A program made the translations under genes and the position numbers. The notes beneath the pieces were generated by a model, which did not search any database, had not been told where the DNA came from, and saw nothing but the letters and a program-made list of their open reading frames with translations. Below, in pieces: positions 24,838 to 58,784 of a DNA stretch of 64,000 nt. Positions within the stretch are counted from its first letter, which is position 1; every line of letters starts with the position of its first letter. The stretch comes from Candidatus Azambacteria bacterium (lineage in GTDB: Bacteria > Patescibacteriota > Minisyncoccia > UBA10092). The DNA lies in contig JACRAJ010000001.1 in NCBI GenBank assembly GCA_016213445.1, positions 14,203 to 78,202 of the forward strand, in the 5' to 3' direction.

Positions 24838-27800
24838 TTAAGTTCTTATTCTCACTTTCTTCTCTTCTTTCTTCCCGCCTTCTTTTTTCTCCGCCTCGCC
24901 CTCCGTAGCCTTGGCGAAGGAAGGTTCAACCAATTCCACATTAAGACCCAGCGATTTCAGTTCGCTTACCAAAACATTGAAAGAGGCGGGCGCGTTGATT
25001 TTTTGAATTTTCTCGCCGCGGATGATGGCGTCAAAAGCCGCCGCCCGGCCGGCAACGTCGTCGGATTTAATGGTAATCATTTCTTGAAGCGTGTGCGCCG
25101 CGCCATAACCTTCAAGCGCCCAAACTTCCATTTCGCCGAATCTCTGGCCGCCAAATTGCGCCCGGCCGCCAAGCGGCTGTTGGGTGATAAGCGAATAAGG
25201 GCCGACGGAGCGCATATGAATCTTGTCTTCAACCAAATGGTTAAGCTTCATTACGTAAATGACGCCAACGGTAATTTTATCGTTAAAAGGTTCGCCTGTG
25301 CGGCCGTCAAAAAGAATTACCTTTCCATCTTCAGGCAAACCGGCTTTTTTGAGTTCGGCTTTAATATCGTCTTCCGTGGCGCCGTCAAGCGCCGGGGTTG
25401 CGGCGCGATAGCCTAATTTGCTGGCGGCCCAACCCAAATGGGTTTCCAATATCTGGCCGATATTCATTCTGGAAACCACTCCCAAAGGATTTAAAATAAT
25501 ATCAACCGGCGTGCCGTCGGCAAGATACGGCATATCTTCTTCGGCGACGATTTTTGAAATAACGCCTTTGTTGCCGTGGCGGCCGGCCAATTTGTCTCCG
25601 GCCTGAATTTTTCTAAGCTGGGCGATTTCAACTTGGATTCTCTTTAAAACGCCTGGATCAAGCTTGTCGCCTTTGTCGCGGGAAAAAATTTTGACGCCGA
25701 CAACGCGCCCTCTTTTGCCGTGAGACAATAAAAGCGACGTGTCTTTGACATCGCGCGCTTTCTCGCCGAAAATCGCTTGCAATAATCTTTCTTCGGAAGT
25801 GAGGTCGGCTTCGCCCTTGGGGGAAATTTTGCCGACCAAAATATCGCCGCTCGCCACTTCGGCGCCGATTCTCACGATTCCTTCTTCGTCAAGATTTTTC
25901 AGTTTTTCCTCGGAAACATTGGGAATGTCGGGCGTGGTGATTTCCGGGCCGAGTTTGGTGTCGCGAACATCGATCGGGTAATCCTCGATGTGAATCGAAG
26001 TAAAGCGGTCATCTTTAACCAAACGCTCGGAAAGAACAATGGCGTCTTCAAAATTGGCGCCGCCCCAGGAAAGAAACGCGACCACAAGATTTTGGCCGAG
26101 CGCCAAATTTCCATTTTGAGTGGCGGTGCCGTCGGCCAGCGCCTGGCCCTTTACAACCTTGTCGCCTTTTCTAACCAGCGGCTGTTGGCTCATCGAAGTA
26201 AACTGGTTCGACCGTAAAAAATTATTTAATTTGTAAACCCTTGATTTATCTTTCAGCTTGTCGCTCGCCGCCTGTCGCTTGCCGCTTTCTTCAACGGCAA
26301 TATGCTGCGCGTCAACGCTTGCCACAATGCCGTCTTCAACGGCCGTAATCACTTGTCCGGAATCCGTCGCCGCTTTTCCTTCCATTCCGGTGCCGACCAA
26401 AGGCGCCTGCGGTTTGATGCAGGAAACAGCCTGCCTCTGCATGTTCGAACCCATTAAAGCGCGGGTGGCGTCATCGTGTTCAACAAACGGAATCAAGCTG
26501 GTGGCCACGGAAAAAATCTGCTGCGGAATCACATCCATATATTGGACTTCTTCCAGCTTCACCATCCGAGGCTTGCCCGCCACTCTCGCTTCCACAACCG
26601 GATCCGTTATTTTGCCATCTTTGTCATATTTGGTTCCGCCGTGGGCGATAACATATCTTTCTTCGTCAAAAGCGTTGAGCCAATCGATTTCGCCGGTGAT
26701 TTTATTGTTTTTTACTTTTACATAAGGCGTTTCAATAAAGCCGAGCTCGTTGACTCGCGCGTAAGAAGTTAAGTGAACCACCAAACCGATATTCGGGCCT
26801 TCCGGAGTTTCAATCGGGCAGATACGGCCGTAGTGCGAAGTGTGCACATCGCGAACTTCAAATCCGGCTCGTTCTCTTGTGAGGCCGCCGGGACCCATGG
26901 CCGAAATTCGGCGCTTGTGTTCAAGCTCGGCCAGGGGATTAACCTGATCCATAAACTGCGCCAATTGGGAAAAAGTGAAAAACTCCTTAACCGCCGCCAT
27001 CATCGGCCGCACGTTAACAAGCTGGGCCGGCGTTAAAGTTTCAATGTCGTAGGTGCTCATCCGGTCGCGAATGATGCGATCCATTCTCGCGAATCCGACG
27101 CGAAGTTTCGCTTGCAAAAGCTCGCCCAAACTGCGCACCCGCCTATTGCCCAAATGGTCGATATCGTCGGGAATCGCGTCTTCCGTATTGTTCAAACGGA
27201 TGATTTCGGAAACAATGCGAATCAAGTCGTCGAAACCCAAAAGCATCTCTTCTTTGCTGTATTCAAATTTATCACCTGTCGCTTGTCGCTTGTCGCTTGT
27301 CGCCCCATTAAGCCTTTGATTAACCTTAAATCGGCCCACTTTCGCCAAATCATAGCGATCGGTCCTGAAAAATATGCCTTCCACCAATTGTTTGGCATTT
27401 TCGGCGGTAGCCGGATCGCCGGGCCGAAGGCGGCGATAAATTTCAACGAAAGCTTCGGCGGCGTTTTTCGACGGGTCTTTTTTTAAAGTCGCTTCTATGT
27501 GCTTGATGGCGCCGGTGTCTATATCTTTGAAAAGCTTCAAAAGGTCTTCATTGGCATCGCCAACATTTGACATTTGATCTTTGACGTTCGACTTATATTG
27601 CTTGTCGCTTGCCAATTGTTTCCTGCCAATTGCCGATTGCCGCGCGGCAAAGATGCGCAGAAGCGCCGTCACCGGCGTTTTGCGCTTCCGATCGATTTTA
27701 ACGCTGATAACTCCGTCCGAATCGGTTTCAAATTCAAGCCAGGCGCCGCGATTCGGTATCACTTTGGCGCCAAAAAGCTTTTTGTTTCTATACAGCGAAG

Positions 27801-28221
27801 CGGTAAAAAAAACGCCGGACGAGCGGATAAGCTGGCTCACAACCACCCGCTCAACGCCGTTGACGATAAAAGTTCCCCGATCGGTCATTATGGGAAATTC
27901 TCCCAAATAAATCTCCTGCTCTTTGGATTTTTTGGTTTTTTTATTAACCAGCTCCAGCCGGACTCTTAAAGGCGCTTCATAAGAAAGCCCGTTTTCTTTC
28001 GCTTTCAGCTCGTCGAATTTAGGCTCGTCGAAATAATAATCATGAAAATGCAATTCCAATTCCTTGCCGGTGTAATCGGCAATCGGCGATATTTCTTCAA
28101 ACAATTCCTTAAGCCCCGATTCCATGAATCGCTTGTAAGAATCGAGCTGCATTGCCACGAGGTTGGGCATCGCCACCCATTTTATTTTTTGCTTCGCGAA
28201 ATTTTTTACTTCCTTAAACAT
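24838..28221 (-). CDS. rpoB: DNA-directed RNA polymerase subunit beta
   Basis: 1127 aa, with RHGNKGVISKIV, DHLGNRRVRSLGELL and the C-terminal GGQRFGEMEVWALEGYGAAHTLQE. Contains three in-frame heptamer-repeat inserts. Confidence 0.97.
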   Translation of the reverse strand: MFKEVKNFAKQKIKWVAMPNLVAMQLDSYKRFMESGLKELFEEISPIADYTGKELELHFHDYYFDEPKFDELKAKENGLSYEAPLRVRLELVNKKTKKSKEQEIYLGEFPIMTDRGTFIVNGVERVVVSQLIRSSGVFFTASLYRNKKLFGAKVIPNRGAWLEFETDSDGVISVKIDRKRKTPVTALLRIFAARQSAIGRKQLASDKQYKSNVKDQMSNVGDANEDLLKLFKDIDTGAIKHIEATLKKDPSKNAAEAFVEIYRRLRPGDPATAENAKQLVEGIFFRTDRYDLAKVGRFKVNQRLNGATSDKRQATGDKFEYSKEEMLLGFDDLIRIVSEIIRLNNTEDAIPDDIDHLGNRRVRSLGELLQAKLRVGFARMDRIIRDRMSTYDIETLTPAQLVNVRPMMAAVKEFFTFSQLAQFMDQVNPLAELEHKRRISAMGPGGLTRERAGFEVRDVHTSHYGRICPIETPEGPNIGLVVHLTSYARVNELGFIETPYVKVKNNKITGEIDWLNAFDEERYVIAHGGTKYDKDGKITDPVVEARVAGKPRMVKLEEVQYMDVIPQQIFSVATSLIPFVEHDDATRALMGSNMQRQAVSCIKPQAPLVGTGMEGKAATDSGQVITAVEDGIVASVDAQHIAVEESGKRQAASDKLKDKSRVYKLNNFLRSNQFTSMSQQPLVRKGDKVVKGQALADGTATQNGNLALGQNLVVAFLSWGGANFEDAIVLSERLVKDDRFTSIHIEDYPIDVRDTKLGPEITTPDIPNVSEEKLKNLDEEGIVRIGAEVASGDILVGKISPKGEADLTSEERLLQAIFGEKARDVKDTSLLLSHGKRGRVVGVKIFSRDKGDKLDPGVLKRIQVEIAQLRKIQAGDKLAGRHGNKGVISKIVAEEDMPYLADGTPVDIILNPLGVVSRMNIGQILETHLGWAASKLGYRAATPALDGATEDDIKAELKKAGLPEDGKVILFDGRTGEPFNDKITVGVIYVMKLNHLVEDKIHMRSVGPYSLITQQPLGGRAQFGGQRFGEMEVWALEGYGAAHTLQEMITIKSDDVAGRAAAFDAIIRGEKIQKINAPASFNVLVSELKSLGLNVELVEPSFAKATEGEAEKKEGGKKEEKKVRIRT
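26256..26288. repeat. GC heptamer tract in rpoB (GCTTGTC GCTCGCC GCCTGTC GCTTGCC)
   Basis: Read directly from the sequence; translated in frame as SGKRQAASDK. Confidence 0.9.
27274..27304. repeat. GC heptamer tract in rpoB (CCTGTC + 3x GCTTGTC)
   Basis: Read directly; translated in frame as ATSDKRQATGDK. Confidence 0.9.
27600..27648. repeat. Degenerate 7-unit heptamer tract in rpoB
   Basis: GCTTGTC GCTTGCC AATTGTT TCCTGCC AATTGCC GATTGCC GCGCGGC; translated as ARQSAIGRKQLASDKQ. Confidence 0.8.
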
Positions 28222-28228
28222 AGGGAAT

Positions 28229-28334
28229 AAATTTTCAATTTTTAATTTTCAAACAATGATTAAATGTTTTAATCTTTTAACGTTTGAAACATTAATCCAT
28301 TAAAAATTGATTAAAAATTAAAAATTGAAAATTA
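28229..28334. repeat. 106-bp AT-rich imperfect palindrome immediately upstream of the rpoB start
   Basis: Arm AAATTTTCAATTTTTAATTTT (28229-28249) matches arm AAAATTAAAAATTGAAAATTA (28314-28334) at 20 of 21 positions. Inner arms AATGATTAAATGTTT and AAACATTAATCCATT also pair. Confidence 0.8.
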
Positions 28335-58703: not shown

Positions 58704-58712
58704 GCGACAAGA
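58692..58712. repeat. GC heptamer tract (opposite orientation) overlapping the polX start codon
   Basis: Plus strand reads GACATGC GACATGC GACAAGA. The minus strand reads ..CTTGTC GCATGTC GCATGTC ACC, and the ATG of the first GCATGTC unit (58703..58701) is the annotated start. Confidence 0.85.
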
Positions 58713-58749
58713 TATAAGTTTATTTTTTAGTTTTTATAAGCAACATTTT

Positions 58750-58784
58750 TCATGCGCCATGTCTCATGTTATATGTCGCTGTTG
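58750..58784. repeat. Degenerate heptamer tract at the 3' end of the MFS-like gene
   Basis: TCATGCG CCATGTC TCATGTT ATATGTC GCTGTTG. Confidence 0.7.

Follow-up and report, generated by a model that had tools for sequence, protein, structure and literature searches.

Analysis of a 64-kb stretch of DNA (64,000 nt of contig JACRAJ010000001.1, hereafter the window) from Candidatus Azambacteria, a tiny uncultured groundwater bacterium of the Candidate Phyla Radiation (CPR; Patescibacteria), demonstrated that tandem repeats of 7-nt units lie in frame within essential genes, including those for RNA polymerase and aminoacyl-tRNA synthetases. These tracts are probably the product of a lineage-specific heptanucleotide microsatellite process, whose output has been filtered by selection for an intact frame, the absence of stop codons and a tolerable peptide. 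A preliminary description of the window had regarded heptamer tracts in such genes as undescribed, and full-text literature searches likewise found no account of in-frame heptamer arrays in essential genes of CPR bacteria or DPANN archaea.

The occurrence of the tracts was compared to that in dinucleotide-preserving shuffles of the window (100 for unit matches and 20 for the period scan). Matches to GCTTGYCGCTTGYC, i.e., two consecutive GCTTGYC units with at most two mismatches, numbered 36, compared to 1.47 expected, and none of the 100 shuffles reached 36. The period scan detected 11 period-7 tracts of at least three units, compared to 0.0 in the shuffles, and periods 4-6 and 8-12 showed no excess over shuffles in the window. 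Heptamer tracts were present at every coordinate listed in the preliminary description, and its gene identities were confirmed by Pfam. All 10 intragenic GC-rich tracts, located in rpoB, tatD, metG, ileS, and argS, kept the reading frame and gave the peptides that had been quoted, and the translations supported the proposal that the tracts are read as circular permutations of one heptapeptide. One GC-rich family of units, GRCAWGC, fills approximately 13 slots in the lineage of the window.

The tract-bearing genes all lie on the minus strand. The rpoB gene (24838-28221) carries three GC-rich tracts: site 1 at 27600-27648, a degenerate heptamer-derived segment encoding amino acids (aa) 192-208 (AARQSAIGRKQLASDKQ); site 2 at 27274-27304, a perfect (GCGACAA)x3.9 array encoding aa 306-316 (GATSDKRQATG); and site 3 at 26256-26288, a degenerate array of GGCAAGC, GACAGGC, GGCGAGC, and GACAAGC units encoding aa 645-656 (ESGKRQAASDKL). 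In tatD (41008-42027), degenerate GACAAGC/GACATGA units at 41515-41549 encode aa 160-171 (YRATSDMRHKTR), and metG (41897-43345) contains a perfect (AGCGGCA)x4 tract at 42587-42620 for aa 242-253 (QDSGKRQAASGM). Two tracts were found in ileS (50112-53054), namely (GCGGCAG)x3.9 at 51357-51391 (aa 555-566; HQAAGGRRQAAS) and (AAGCGGC/AAGCGAC)x4.4 at 50963-50998 (aa 686-698; VKAASGKRQAASL). Three were found in argS (53059-54717): site 1, a perfect (GCGACAT)x4.1 array at 54129-54163 (aa 185-197; AQSDMRHATCDME); site 2, (CAAGCGG)x4.6 at 53911-53946 (aa 258-269; DKRQAASGKRQG); and site 3, (GCGACAA)x3.9 at 53345-53379 (aa 447-458; ILRQATSDKRHA). A further GC-rich copy had been reported at 30037-30066, in the gene of a tetratricopeptide repeat (TPR) protein (28947-31559). 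It is present (AASTSSRQAAS) but weak, degenerate, and below the tract thresholds; in the related loci L124, L125, and L126, the N-terminal region of the orthologous TPR genes bears clear tracts.

The preliminary description tied the phenomenon to GC-rich units; a second set of heptamer tracts, rich in AT and likewise in frame, had escaped it. Their units (AATTTTC, AATTTCT, CAAATTA, AAAATCG, AAAAATC, and GTTGTTT) occur in rpoC, leuS, metG, ileS, polX, and the gene for an AI-2E transporter, as well as in intergenic DNA. In rpoC (21093-24701), (CAAATTA)x2.9 at 24215-24234 encodes SKLQIANY, and L124 has (CAAATTA)x4.6 in its rpoC (SKLQITNSKLQT). The leuS gene (38402-40918), whose ORF (open reading frame) was identified as LeuRS, contains (AATTTTC)x4.3 at 38872-38901 (KFSIFNSQFSN) and (AATTTCT)x4.3 at 40189-40218 (KFLISNFQFL). 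The metG gene has a (AAAATCG/AAAATTG)x2.7 tract at 42818-42836 (IKSKIEN), and polX (56970-58703) has (AAAAATC)x2.6 at 57468-57485 (KNQKSK). In ileS, an AATTTTC-type tract of 4.3 units at 50498-50527 encodes KFSISNFQFS, and its slot is filled by (AAGTTCA)x4.1 in L120 and (AAAAATT)x5 in L122. The AI-2E transporter gene (43924-44955) contains (GTTGTTT)x2.9 at 44724-44743, read in the hydrophobic orientation as YLLFVVCF at approximately aa 70, and the L122 orthologue bears (GTTTTTT) at approximately the same position. Intergenic AT-rich tracts were located 5' of rpoB (28230-28341, no strand assigned; AATTTTC at 28230-28252 and ATTAAAA at 28310-28341), and further intergenic tracts at 24708-24771 and 46347-46382.

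A census of closely related DNA, covering approximately 0.3 Mb, comprised 54 period-7 tracts in 16 Azambacteria-like loci. Forty of the 54 tracts (74%) were located in ORFs of at least 150 aa, which cover 87% of the bases, and the depletion of tracts in genes is thus only modest. The lengths of coding and non-coding tracts differed. Tracts of 26-33 nt (approximately four units) accounted for 34/54 coding but 6/21 non-coding cases (p = 0.01), and tracts longer than 40 nt for 1/38 and 3/10, respectively (p = 0.02). The single long coding tract has 7.4 units, whereas non-coding tracts reach 60-99 nt. The lengths of the coding tracts fit the frame-preserving states of approximately one, four, and seven units.

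The orientation of the tracts tracks the hydropathy of the encoded peptide. Among units in soluble proteins that are open in both directions, the hydrophilic reading was used in 15/15 cases (p = 6e-5), and the GRCAAGC-family coding tracts were in the sense orientation in 22/22. In the AI-2E transporter tracts, the hydrophobic reading was used in 2/2; the complement of the unit encodes KQQTTNN, and a peptide of this type is present in RpoB loops of relatives. Units that would yield a stop codon when perfectly repeated bear a point change at that position. The orientation had earlier been related to stop codons, and the coding strand is indeed open; however, the opposite orientation, (GCTTGTC)n, is stop-free too, and therefore the absence of stops does not explain how the tracts are oriented. 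As singletons, the units occurred at about the chance level and were not enriched, except GGCAAGC, which was approximately 2.5-fold over-represented.

Loop status and surface exposure were deduced from alignments and from gaps relative to solved structures. On this basis, the tracts appear always to lie in length-variable loops, without always being net insertions. They had been predicted to be lineage-specific insertions in surface loops; they are lineage-specific and occupy variable loops of housekeeping proteins, but only about half of the sites show a net gain, amounting to 5-11 aa when compared with orthologues or solved structures, and the remainder replace loop sequence at unchanged length. 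The MetRS tract corresponds to a 7-aa (21-nt) gap in structure 4dlp_A, the TatD tract to a 5-aa gap in 1j6o_A, and RpoB site 3 to an 11-aa gap in the solved RpoB 8i23_C, in a loop that is hypervariable in 35 orthologues. ArgRS site 2 is a clean 30-nt insertion relative to the sibling locus L120 and an 11-aa gap relative to 3fnr_A; the tract is missing from most of 34 orthologues, some of which have other inserts at the same spot. In IleRS, the tract at aa 555-566 adds 7 aa relative to the sibling L122, and the one at aa 686-698 replaces a variable loop just N-terminal to the anticodon-binding domain with no net gain. The loop of ArgRS site 1 equals distant orthologues and 3fnr_A in length, and ArgRS site 3 likewise shows no net insertion relative to 3fnr_A and has the length found in distant orthologues. 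RpoB sites 1 and 2 fall at breaks between the blocks alignable to solved structures; site 1 lies within an unalignable block, a hypervariable loop absent in distant relatives. Distant Parcubacteria have short loops at all three RpoB sites. The tract positions coincide with hypervariable columns in the alignments of ArgRS (35 sequences), IleRS, and RpoB. An AlphaFold2 model of ArgRS built on a 35-sequence alignment gave a mean predicted local distance difference test score (pLDDT) of 48 and was unusable.

In nearly every Azambacteria lineage, the same loops hold a different peptide with a 7-aa period, e.g., KSEIRNPKSE, ENQKSKIKNQ, RQTTNNKQQTTN, SRNMKHETRNK, or NFQFSIFNFQF, and in sibling DNA the loop peptides are translations of the units AAATCCG, AAAATCA, AACATGA, AAATCAC, AAGTTCA, AAAAATT, and AATACCA. 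The phenomenon is not tied to this genome: relatives bear other units in the same loops, and the DKRQATS tract recurs in other CPR and DPANN lineages. The units at one slot can form a graded series, as at RpoB site 3, where GGCAAGC/GACAAGC in the window corresponds to AACAAGC in L124 and AACATGA/AACACGC in L125. At this site L124 has a perfect (AACAAGC)5 array where that of the window is degenerate, and at ArgRS site 1 the window has (GACATGC)4 where L120 has mixed GACAAGC/GACATGA units. The slot of ArgRS site 3 is filled in L120 by an (AATTTTC/A) tract, and both versions share a seed-like CGA[C/A]AAGC; microhomology of this seed kind is seen at ArgRS site 2 as well. Such graded and internally homogenised arrays are the signature of old tracts undergoing concerted evolution in place. 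RpoB site 2 departs from this pattern of differing units. The window and L124 share its 28 nt with 100% identity, in genes whose overall identity is 78.6% and falls to 57% at third codon positions. Perfect stretches of 27 nt or more number only three in the gene, namely this tract and two that code for invariant catalytic motifs.

Turnover of the tracts was also observed between strains. L125 and L126 derive from two samples taken in the same study (JGI 3300025021 and 3300025142) and show no difference over 7.4 kb, comprising 4,021 nt upstream and the whole of rpoB, except for a patch of approximately 130 nt at site 3, in which an (AACATGA)-type tract is exchanged for (AAATCAC)4 and the flanking codons are altered too. 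Judged by its sequence, the patch resembles a short segment recombined in from a diverged allele. Other pairs of RpoB at 98.6-98.8% identity have unrelated contents at site 1. No frameshifted allele was found among about 240 RpoB and ArgRS orthologues, all of which were intact.

The density of period-7 tracts (at least three units) was 1.72 per 10 kb in the window and 1.98 in close siblings. Among the matches listed, an RpoB-based metagenome scan gave relatives at 48-68% identity, which served as a phylogenetic control panel and not as siblings. In this panel, the density fell with RpoB identity, from 0.71 per 10 kb at 60-68% through 0.14 at 55-59% to 0.04 at 48-54%, and no trend was observed for other periods across the same relatives. 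In species-representative genomes, (GRCAAGC)3 was found at a minimum of 119 loci (at least that many), mostly in high-GC Proteobacteria and Actinobacteria such as Pseudomonas, Burkholderia, and Streptomyces, in a scan that is not quantitative and in which the ORF calls in high-GC loci are unreliable. These groups are already known to be rich in heptamer repeats (PMC4679880). Among the low-GC matches listed, 8/13 were located in long ORFs, with GRCAAGC on the coding strand in 8/8. The genes concerned encode IleRS (of one member of the Yanofskybacteria and one of the Liptonbacteria), SecA, asparagine synthase, and WecG, and in archaea GatB/GatE of one member of the Woesearchaeota and one of the Undinarchaeota and Trm5 of another member of the Woesearchaeota. 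The IleRS of the Yanofskybacteria member has DKRQATS at approximately the position of the aa 686-698 tract of the window, and that of the Liptonbacteria member has ATSDKRQA in the same loop as the aa 555-566 tract, so that both appear to occupy the same two loops as in the window. When the searched tract was excluded, the low-GC CPR/DPANN loci contained 0.5-1.5 further period-7 tracts per 10 kb, no tracts at periods 6, 8, 9, or 10, and one period-5 tract overall. A scan of viral contigs gave 42 matches, mostly outside long ORFs and lacking host information, and was uninformative.

The mechanism that we propose begins with repeat generation specific to period 7, which would be very active in Azambacteria and appears to be active too in other CPR bacteria and some DPANN archaea. 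Heptamers are described as the commonest class of long simple sequence repeats in many bacteria, and a 7-nt footprint of the polymerase has been proposed to favor slippage (PMC4679880, summarising Mrazek et al. 2007). The process seems largely to ignore coding status, and the visible tracts would be those that selection passes. Within a gene, a tract would survive only when it falls in a length-tolerant loop, when the net change keeps the frame by steps of three units (21 nt), when the strand that is read is free of stops, and when the heptapeptide fits its context, i.e., hydrophilic in soluble enzymes and hydrophobic in a membrane helix. Seven and three share no factor, so the frame is kept only in three-unit steps, giving arrays of approximately one, four, and seven units. 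A slot that holds a tract would persist for a long time while its units are homogenised by concerted evolution, so that each lineage shows a different but internally uniform unit, and whole tracts could be exchanged between strains by short-patch recombination. The molecular step may be slippage or template switching, acting through a cycle of one, four, and seven units, and the presence of one GC-rich family at approximately 13 slots suggests copying between loci.

Several points weigh against this explanation. Ordinary slipped-strand mispairing proceeds one unit at a time and would frameshift an essential gene; it cannot expand a single-copy seed, and the jump from one to four units is therefore unexplained. 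The preliminary description expected polymorphism in three-unit steps, and the coding tracts do have approximately four units, with one of 7.4; however, clean 7-aa indels between close relatives, which had been expected, amounted to only three events in 229 RpoB and ArgRS sequences. One unit family at approximately 13 slots is not expected if each slot evolves independently. Homogenisation alone does not guarantee the identical 28-nt tract in the two rpoB genes, which may reflect transfer or a templated source. The census counts the near-identical loci L125 and L126 separately, the cases from CPR and DPANN came to light through a search for the GRCAAGC unit itself and are thus biased towards it, and the location of every tract-bearing gene of the window on one strand makes effects of transcription and replication inseparable.

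A different and rather unlikely explanation, although one that addresses some of these points, is that the tracts are discrete mobile mini-cassettes of approximately 27-32 nt, very short analogues of the Rickettsia palindromic elements (RPEs) or of miniature transposable elements with inverted repeats (MITEs), which are inserted whole by an enzyme or by templated repair and spread between loci and possibly between organisms. The heptamer periodicity would then be a property of the cassette rather than of slippage in situ. The uniform 26-33 nt of the coding tracts, the single family at approximately 13 loci of this genome, the 28 nt shared without change by divergent rpoB genes, and the recurrence of an identical DKRQATS tract across several lineages of CPR and DPANN are consistent with insertion of this kind, and the same genomes hold an insertional element of like size, a 30-nt perfect palindrome. 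Against it, dozens of unrelated units are alike in period only, the graded and homogenised series at orthologous slots indicate evolution in situ, tract ends fall at differing unit phases with no terminal repeats or target duplications seen, non-coding lengths are continuous up to 99 nt, the unit is not enriched as a singleton, and no associated enzyme was identified, transposases not having been sought genome-wide.

Also in favor of the cassettes is a discrete insertion of approximately 80 nt between ileS and recO (49532-50233). The preliminary description listed two non-coding copies, at 50041-50112 and 58692-58784; tracts are located at both sites, but each consists of a direct and an inverted tract, and the second is not purely non-coding. 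These are the only inverted-orientation tracts of the GRCAWGC family in the window (a 14-nt match at 31335 is not a tract). The ileS-recO element (50033-50111, minus strand) is composed of a direct tract (GCGACAG/GCGACAA) joined to an inverted one by an AT-rich loop of 18 nt, and sits between the ileS stop codon and the recO start, where the spacer measures approximately 83 nt in the window compared to 3 nt in L120 and L122. Its RNA fold has an energy of -35.6 kcal/mol (z = -7.1). Like a MITE, it has inverted arms, here of heptamers around an 18-nt core, and it is absent in L120 and L122; no target-site duplication was obvious at its junctions, the only other inverted pair in the window is that at 58692-58784, and no genome-wide transposase search was made. 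This second pair (minus strand) lies in the spacer between an MFS fragment (58769-59377) and polX. Its direct tract is degenerate (GACATAT AACATGA GACATGG CGCATGA) and spans the MFS stop codon, an AT-rich spacer follows, and the inverted tract (TTGTCGC ATGTCGC ATGTCAC) holds the polX ATG. As a structured element, it was rejected since its fold was not significant (z = -1.8).

A doubtful further possibility, which we regard as a long shot, is that CPR and DPANN share an active templated process that writes heptamers, adding blocks of approximately three units at short seeds through a polymerase, a primase, a repair activity, or a mobile agent, and copying unit families between loci and perhaps between co-resident organisms. 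If true, surface loops in the core information-processing machinery would be continuously remodelled, and the process would amount to a mechanism of mutation that had gone unrecognised, by which the proteins of ultra-small symbionts could evolve in length.

It is improbable that the loops are adaptive hypervariable regions under diversifying selection, e.g., for escape from phage or competitor proteins that bind RNA polymerase and synthetases, with the heptamers supplying the variation. Loop contents do change far faster than the remaining protein, the same loops vary repeatedly across lineages, and the tract swapped between L125 and L126 together with its flanking codon changes resembles an imported allele. 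However, the tracts extend to numerous cytoplasmic enzymes that are unrelated to one another, to a membrane helix, and to intergenic DNA, as a general mutational process combined with tolerance would produce; moreover, there is no known binder, and frameshift-prone repeats are costly in essential genes.

Functional nucleic-acid signals that lie in genes by chance (protein-binding sites, uptake sequences, RNA structures, or G-quadruplexes) are a very improbable source of the tracts. The strong hairpin right after the ileS stop codon could be a terminator or stabiliser, and one study proposes that the Xanthomonas and Nostoc heptamer repeats are regulatory G-quadruplex elements (PMC4692102). The units of the tracts, however, lack G-runs, unit sequence is not conserved at the same site between relatives, the coding tracts on their own lack self-complementarity, and the second intergenic pair folds non-significantly. 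Singletons occur at about chance apart from the excess of GGCAAGC, and an uptake sequence was rejected on account of this chance level. An artefact of assembly or annotation, or chance low-complexity sequence, is effectively refuted even though assemblers can be misled by repeats and the sequence derives from a metagenome-assembled genome, as the tracts (19-37 nt) are below read length and lie inside intact conserved ORFs, exceed the shuffled expectation more than 20-fold, and recur at orthologous positions in independent assemblies from NCBI, JGI, ENA, and Logan.

A diversity-generating retroelement was set aside: here repeats are replaced, rather than bases substituted specifically at adenines, and the stretches read showed no reverse transcriptase. 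A gene for a 23S_rRNA_IVP or bAvd-like four-helix bundle is located close upstream of rpoB in L125 and L126 (3600-3977) and L208 (1499-2017). Proteins of the bAvd type accompany diversity-generating retroelements.

Other short inserts were encountered in the same proteins. A perfect palindrome of 30 nt, TCCGCCAAAGGCGGATCCGCCTTTGGCGGA, identical to its own reverse complement and with GGATCC at its center, lies in frame in argS at 54391-54420 (aa 100-109, SAKGGSAFGG). A near-copy occurs at 1259-1288 within a methyltransferase ORF (1085-1813) and a weak copy at 31488-31517. In L208 (7172-7201), the palindrome is a precise insertion relative to L207, and the rpoB genes of these two loci differ by 3 substitutions in 3,345 nt. 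Clean 10-aa indels, mostly of the SAKGGSASGG type, were found at several RpoB and ArgRS positions in relatives, and in a shifted frame the palindrome appears to read PPKADQPRAE. To judge from its sequence, it looks like a very small mobile palindromic insert. Near the position of window aa 225-235, the RpoB orthologues P0148, P0179, and P0188 have the repeat peptides SIGPIGPIGP and IGSIDNIGQIGPISPI; such repeats are present or absent between proteins of approximately 99% identity, and their period is apparently 3 aa (9 nt) and not 7. Further recurrent loop inserts in RpoB and ArgRS orthologues (e.g., P0122, P0144, P0145, and P0152) include THPNPPLSGRE / PPDKGDTGG, PSFAKASEGK, PPSLKLRRT, and ISAFTEVSADK, which resemble the translated products of further short repeats or hairpin elements that may be common to Parcubacteria. 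In several Parcubacteria, IleRS contains a complete histidine-phosphatase domain of approximately 170 aa (His_Phos_1, phosphoglycerate-mutase-like) in the middle of its catalytic domain (L122 11646-15086, 1146 aa; L013 875-4387; L033 529-3444), which the IleRS of the window and of L120 lack.

Elsewhere in the window, two adjacent period-11 arrays at 11118-11207, TGCGGCCATCT x2.7 and TGGCCGCATCA x4.8, lie just upstream of an ORF at 11196-11846 and are unrelated to the heptamer families. After the 16S rRNA gene (19254-20749, minus strand) come tRNA-Ile and tRNA-Ala (region 18490-20749) and then protein-coding ORFs; no 23S rRNA gene was detected within the 64-kb window, and the rRNA operon appears to be split. 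A 1,779-aa ORF (31893-37232) combines an HTH_17 domain at its N-terminus with a Peptidase_S74 (endosialidase-chaperone) domain located near aa 1506-1566, and its product may be a phage-tail-fibre-like or surface protein. The GC skew is strongly positive at 34-36 kb, unlike in the remaining window.

One would expect repeats with a unit length indivisible by three to be cleared from essential genes, since each slip is a lethal frameshift. Yet they are common here in RNA polymerase and in four aminoacyl-tRNA synthetases (ArgRS, IleRS, MetRS, and LeuRS), where they follow simple rules (approximately 3n+1 units, a stop-free strand, and a suitable peptide) and turn over faster than point substitution. 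The tracts offer a natural setting in which to study what makes period 7 special in the formation of prokaryotic repeats. They account for many of the lineage-specific low-complexity inserts that inflate and confuse the alignments of CPR/DPANN marker proteins used in phylogeny, and they can serve as strain-resolving markers within otherwise identical genomes. These observations also suggest that an unusual process of mutation is tolerated in the reduced genomes of episymbionts or cannot be suppressed there.

Several known systems share part of these features. The short tandemly repeated repetitive (STRR) sequences of heterocystous cyanobacteria, the TAACTGA repeats of Beggiatoaceae, and the GGGAATC repeats of Xanthomonas and Nostoc are, like the repeats of the window, tandem 7-nt arrays of few to several copies, with a handful of unit families per genome, a scattered phylogenetic spread, and inverted pairs that are sometimes able to form stem-loops, and they too have no known generating mechanism (PMC4679880, PMC4692102). 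Heptamer arrays in the literature are enriched between genes and under-represented within them (PMC4692102, PMC4679880). The tandem heptanucleotide structure is thus common to STRRs and the window tracts, but the latter are only modestly depleted in genes, lie in frame in essential genes, and consist of GRCAWGC and AATTTTC-type units in Azambacteria, the hosts being CPR/DPANN and not cyanobacteria. Their units differ from the consensus units of STRR1-3.

Long simple sequence repeats, which are head-to-tail arrays of 1-11 nt units, resemble the window tracts in that arrays exceed chance, heptamers dominate, and slippage with a 7-nt footprint has been proposed (PMC4679880). The tandem units of the window are likewise longer and more frequent than expected by chance. 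In the survey summarised there, the units found inside genes were multiples of three (PMC4679880, summarising Mrazek et al. 2007). In the Azambacteria-like loci, by contrast, genes commonly hold a unit length indivisible by three, which arrays of approximately 3n+1 units make compatible with the frame, and the 40/54 tracts in long ORFs are the main departure from the exclusion of such units from coding DNA. Changes in copy number by unit steps would fit the homogenised units and the four- and seven-unit classes, but clean 7-aa indels are rare.

The preliminary description also likened the tracts to in-frame selfish DNA of the RPE type. Both are repeated DNA that lies in frame in unrelated housekeeping genes and adds a conserved peptide at tolerated sites while leaving the protein functional, but RPEs are palindromic MITE-like elements of approximately 150 bp in ten families (PMC10969869), whereas the window tracts are direct repeats of 19-37 nt with no self-complementarity and many units, and the likeness is one of analogy. 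The 30-nt palindrome at 54391-54420 is a closer analogue of RPEs than the heptamer tracts are. Contingency loci of Haemophilus, Neisseria, and Campylobacter, like the window tracts, place a simple sequence repeat that is not a multiple of three inside a coding region. These loci switch non-essential surface genes on and off by frameshift. The window tracts differ in lying in essential genes, in their short arrays of approximately four units, and in the lack of any frameshifted (off) allele in the about 240 orthologues. In-frame heptamer arrays in essential genes are therefore not matched by STRRs or long simple sequence repeats, by RPEs, or by contingency loci; as for the underlying process, it seems to us rather likely that the heptanucleotide microsatellite process of Azambacteria is of the same general kind as that behind the cyanobacterial STRRs and long simple sequence repeats.

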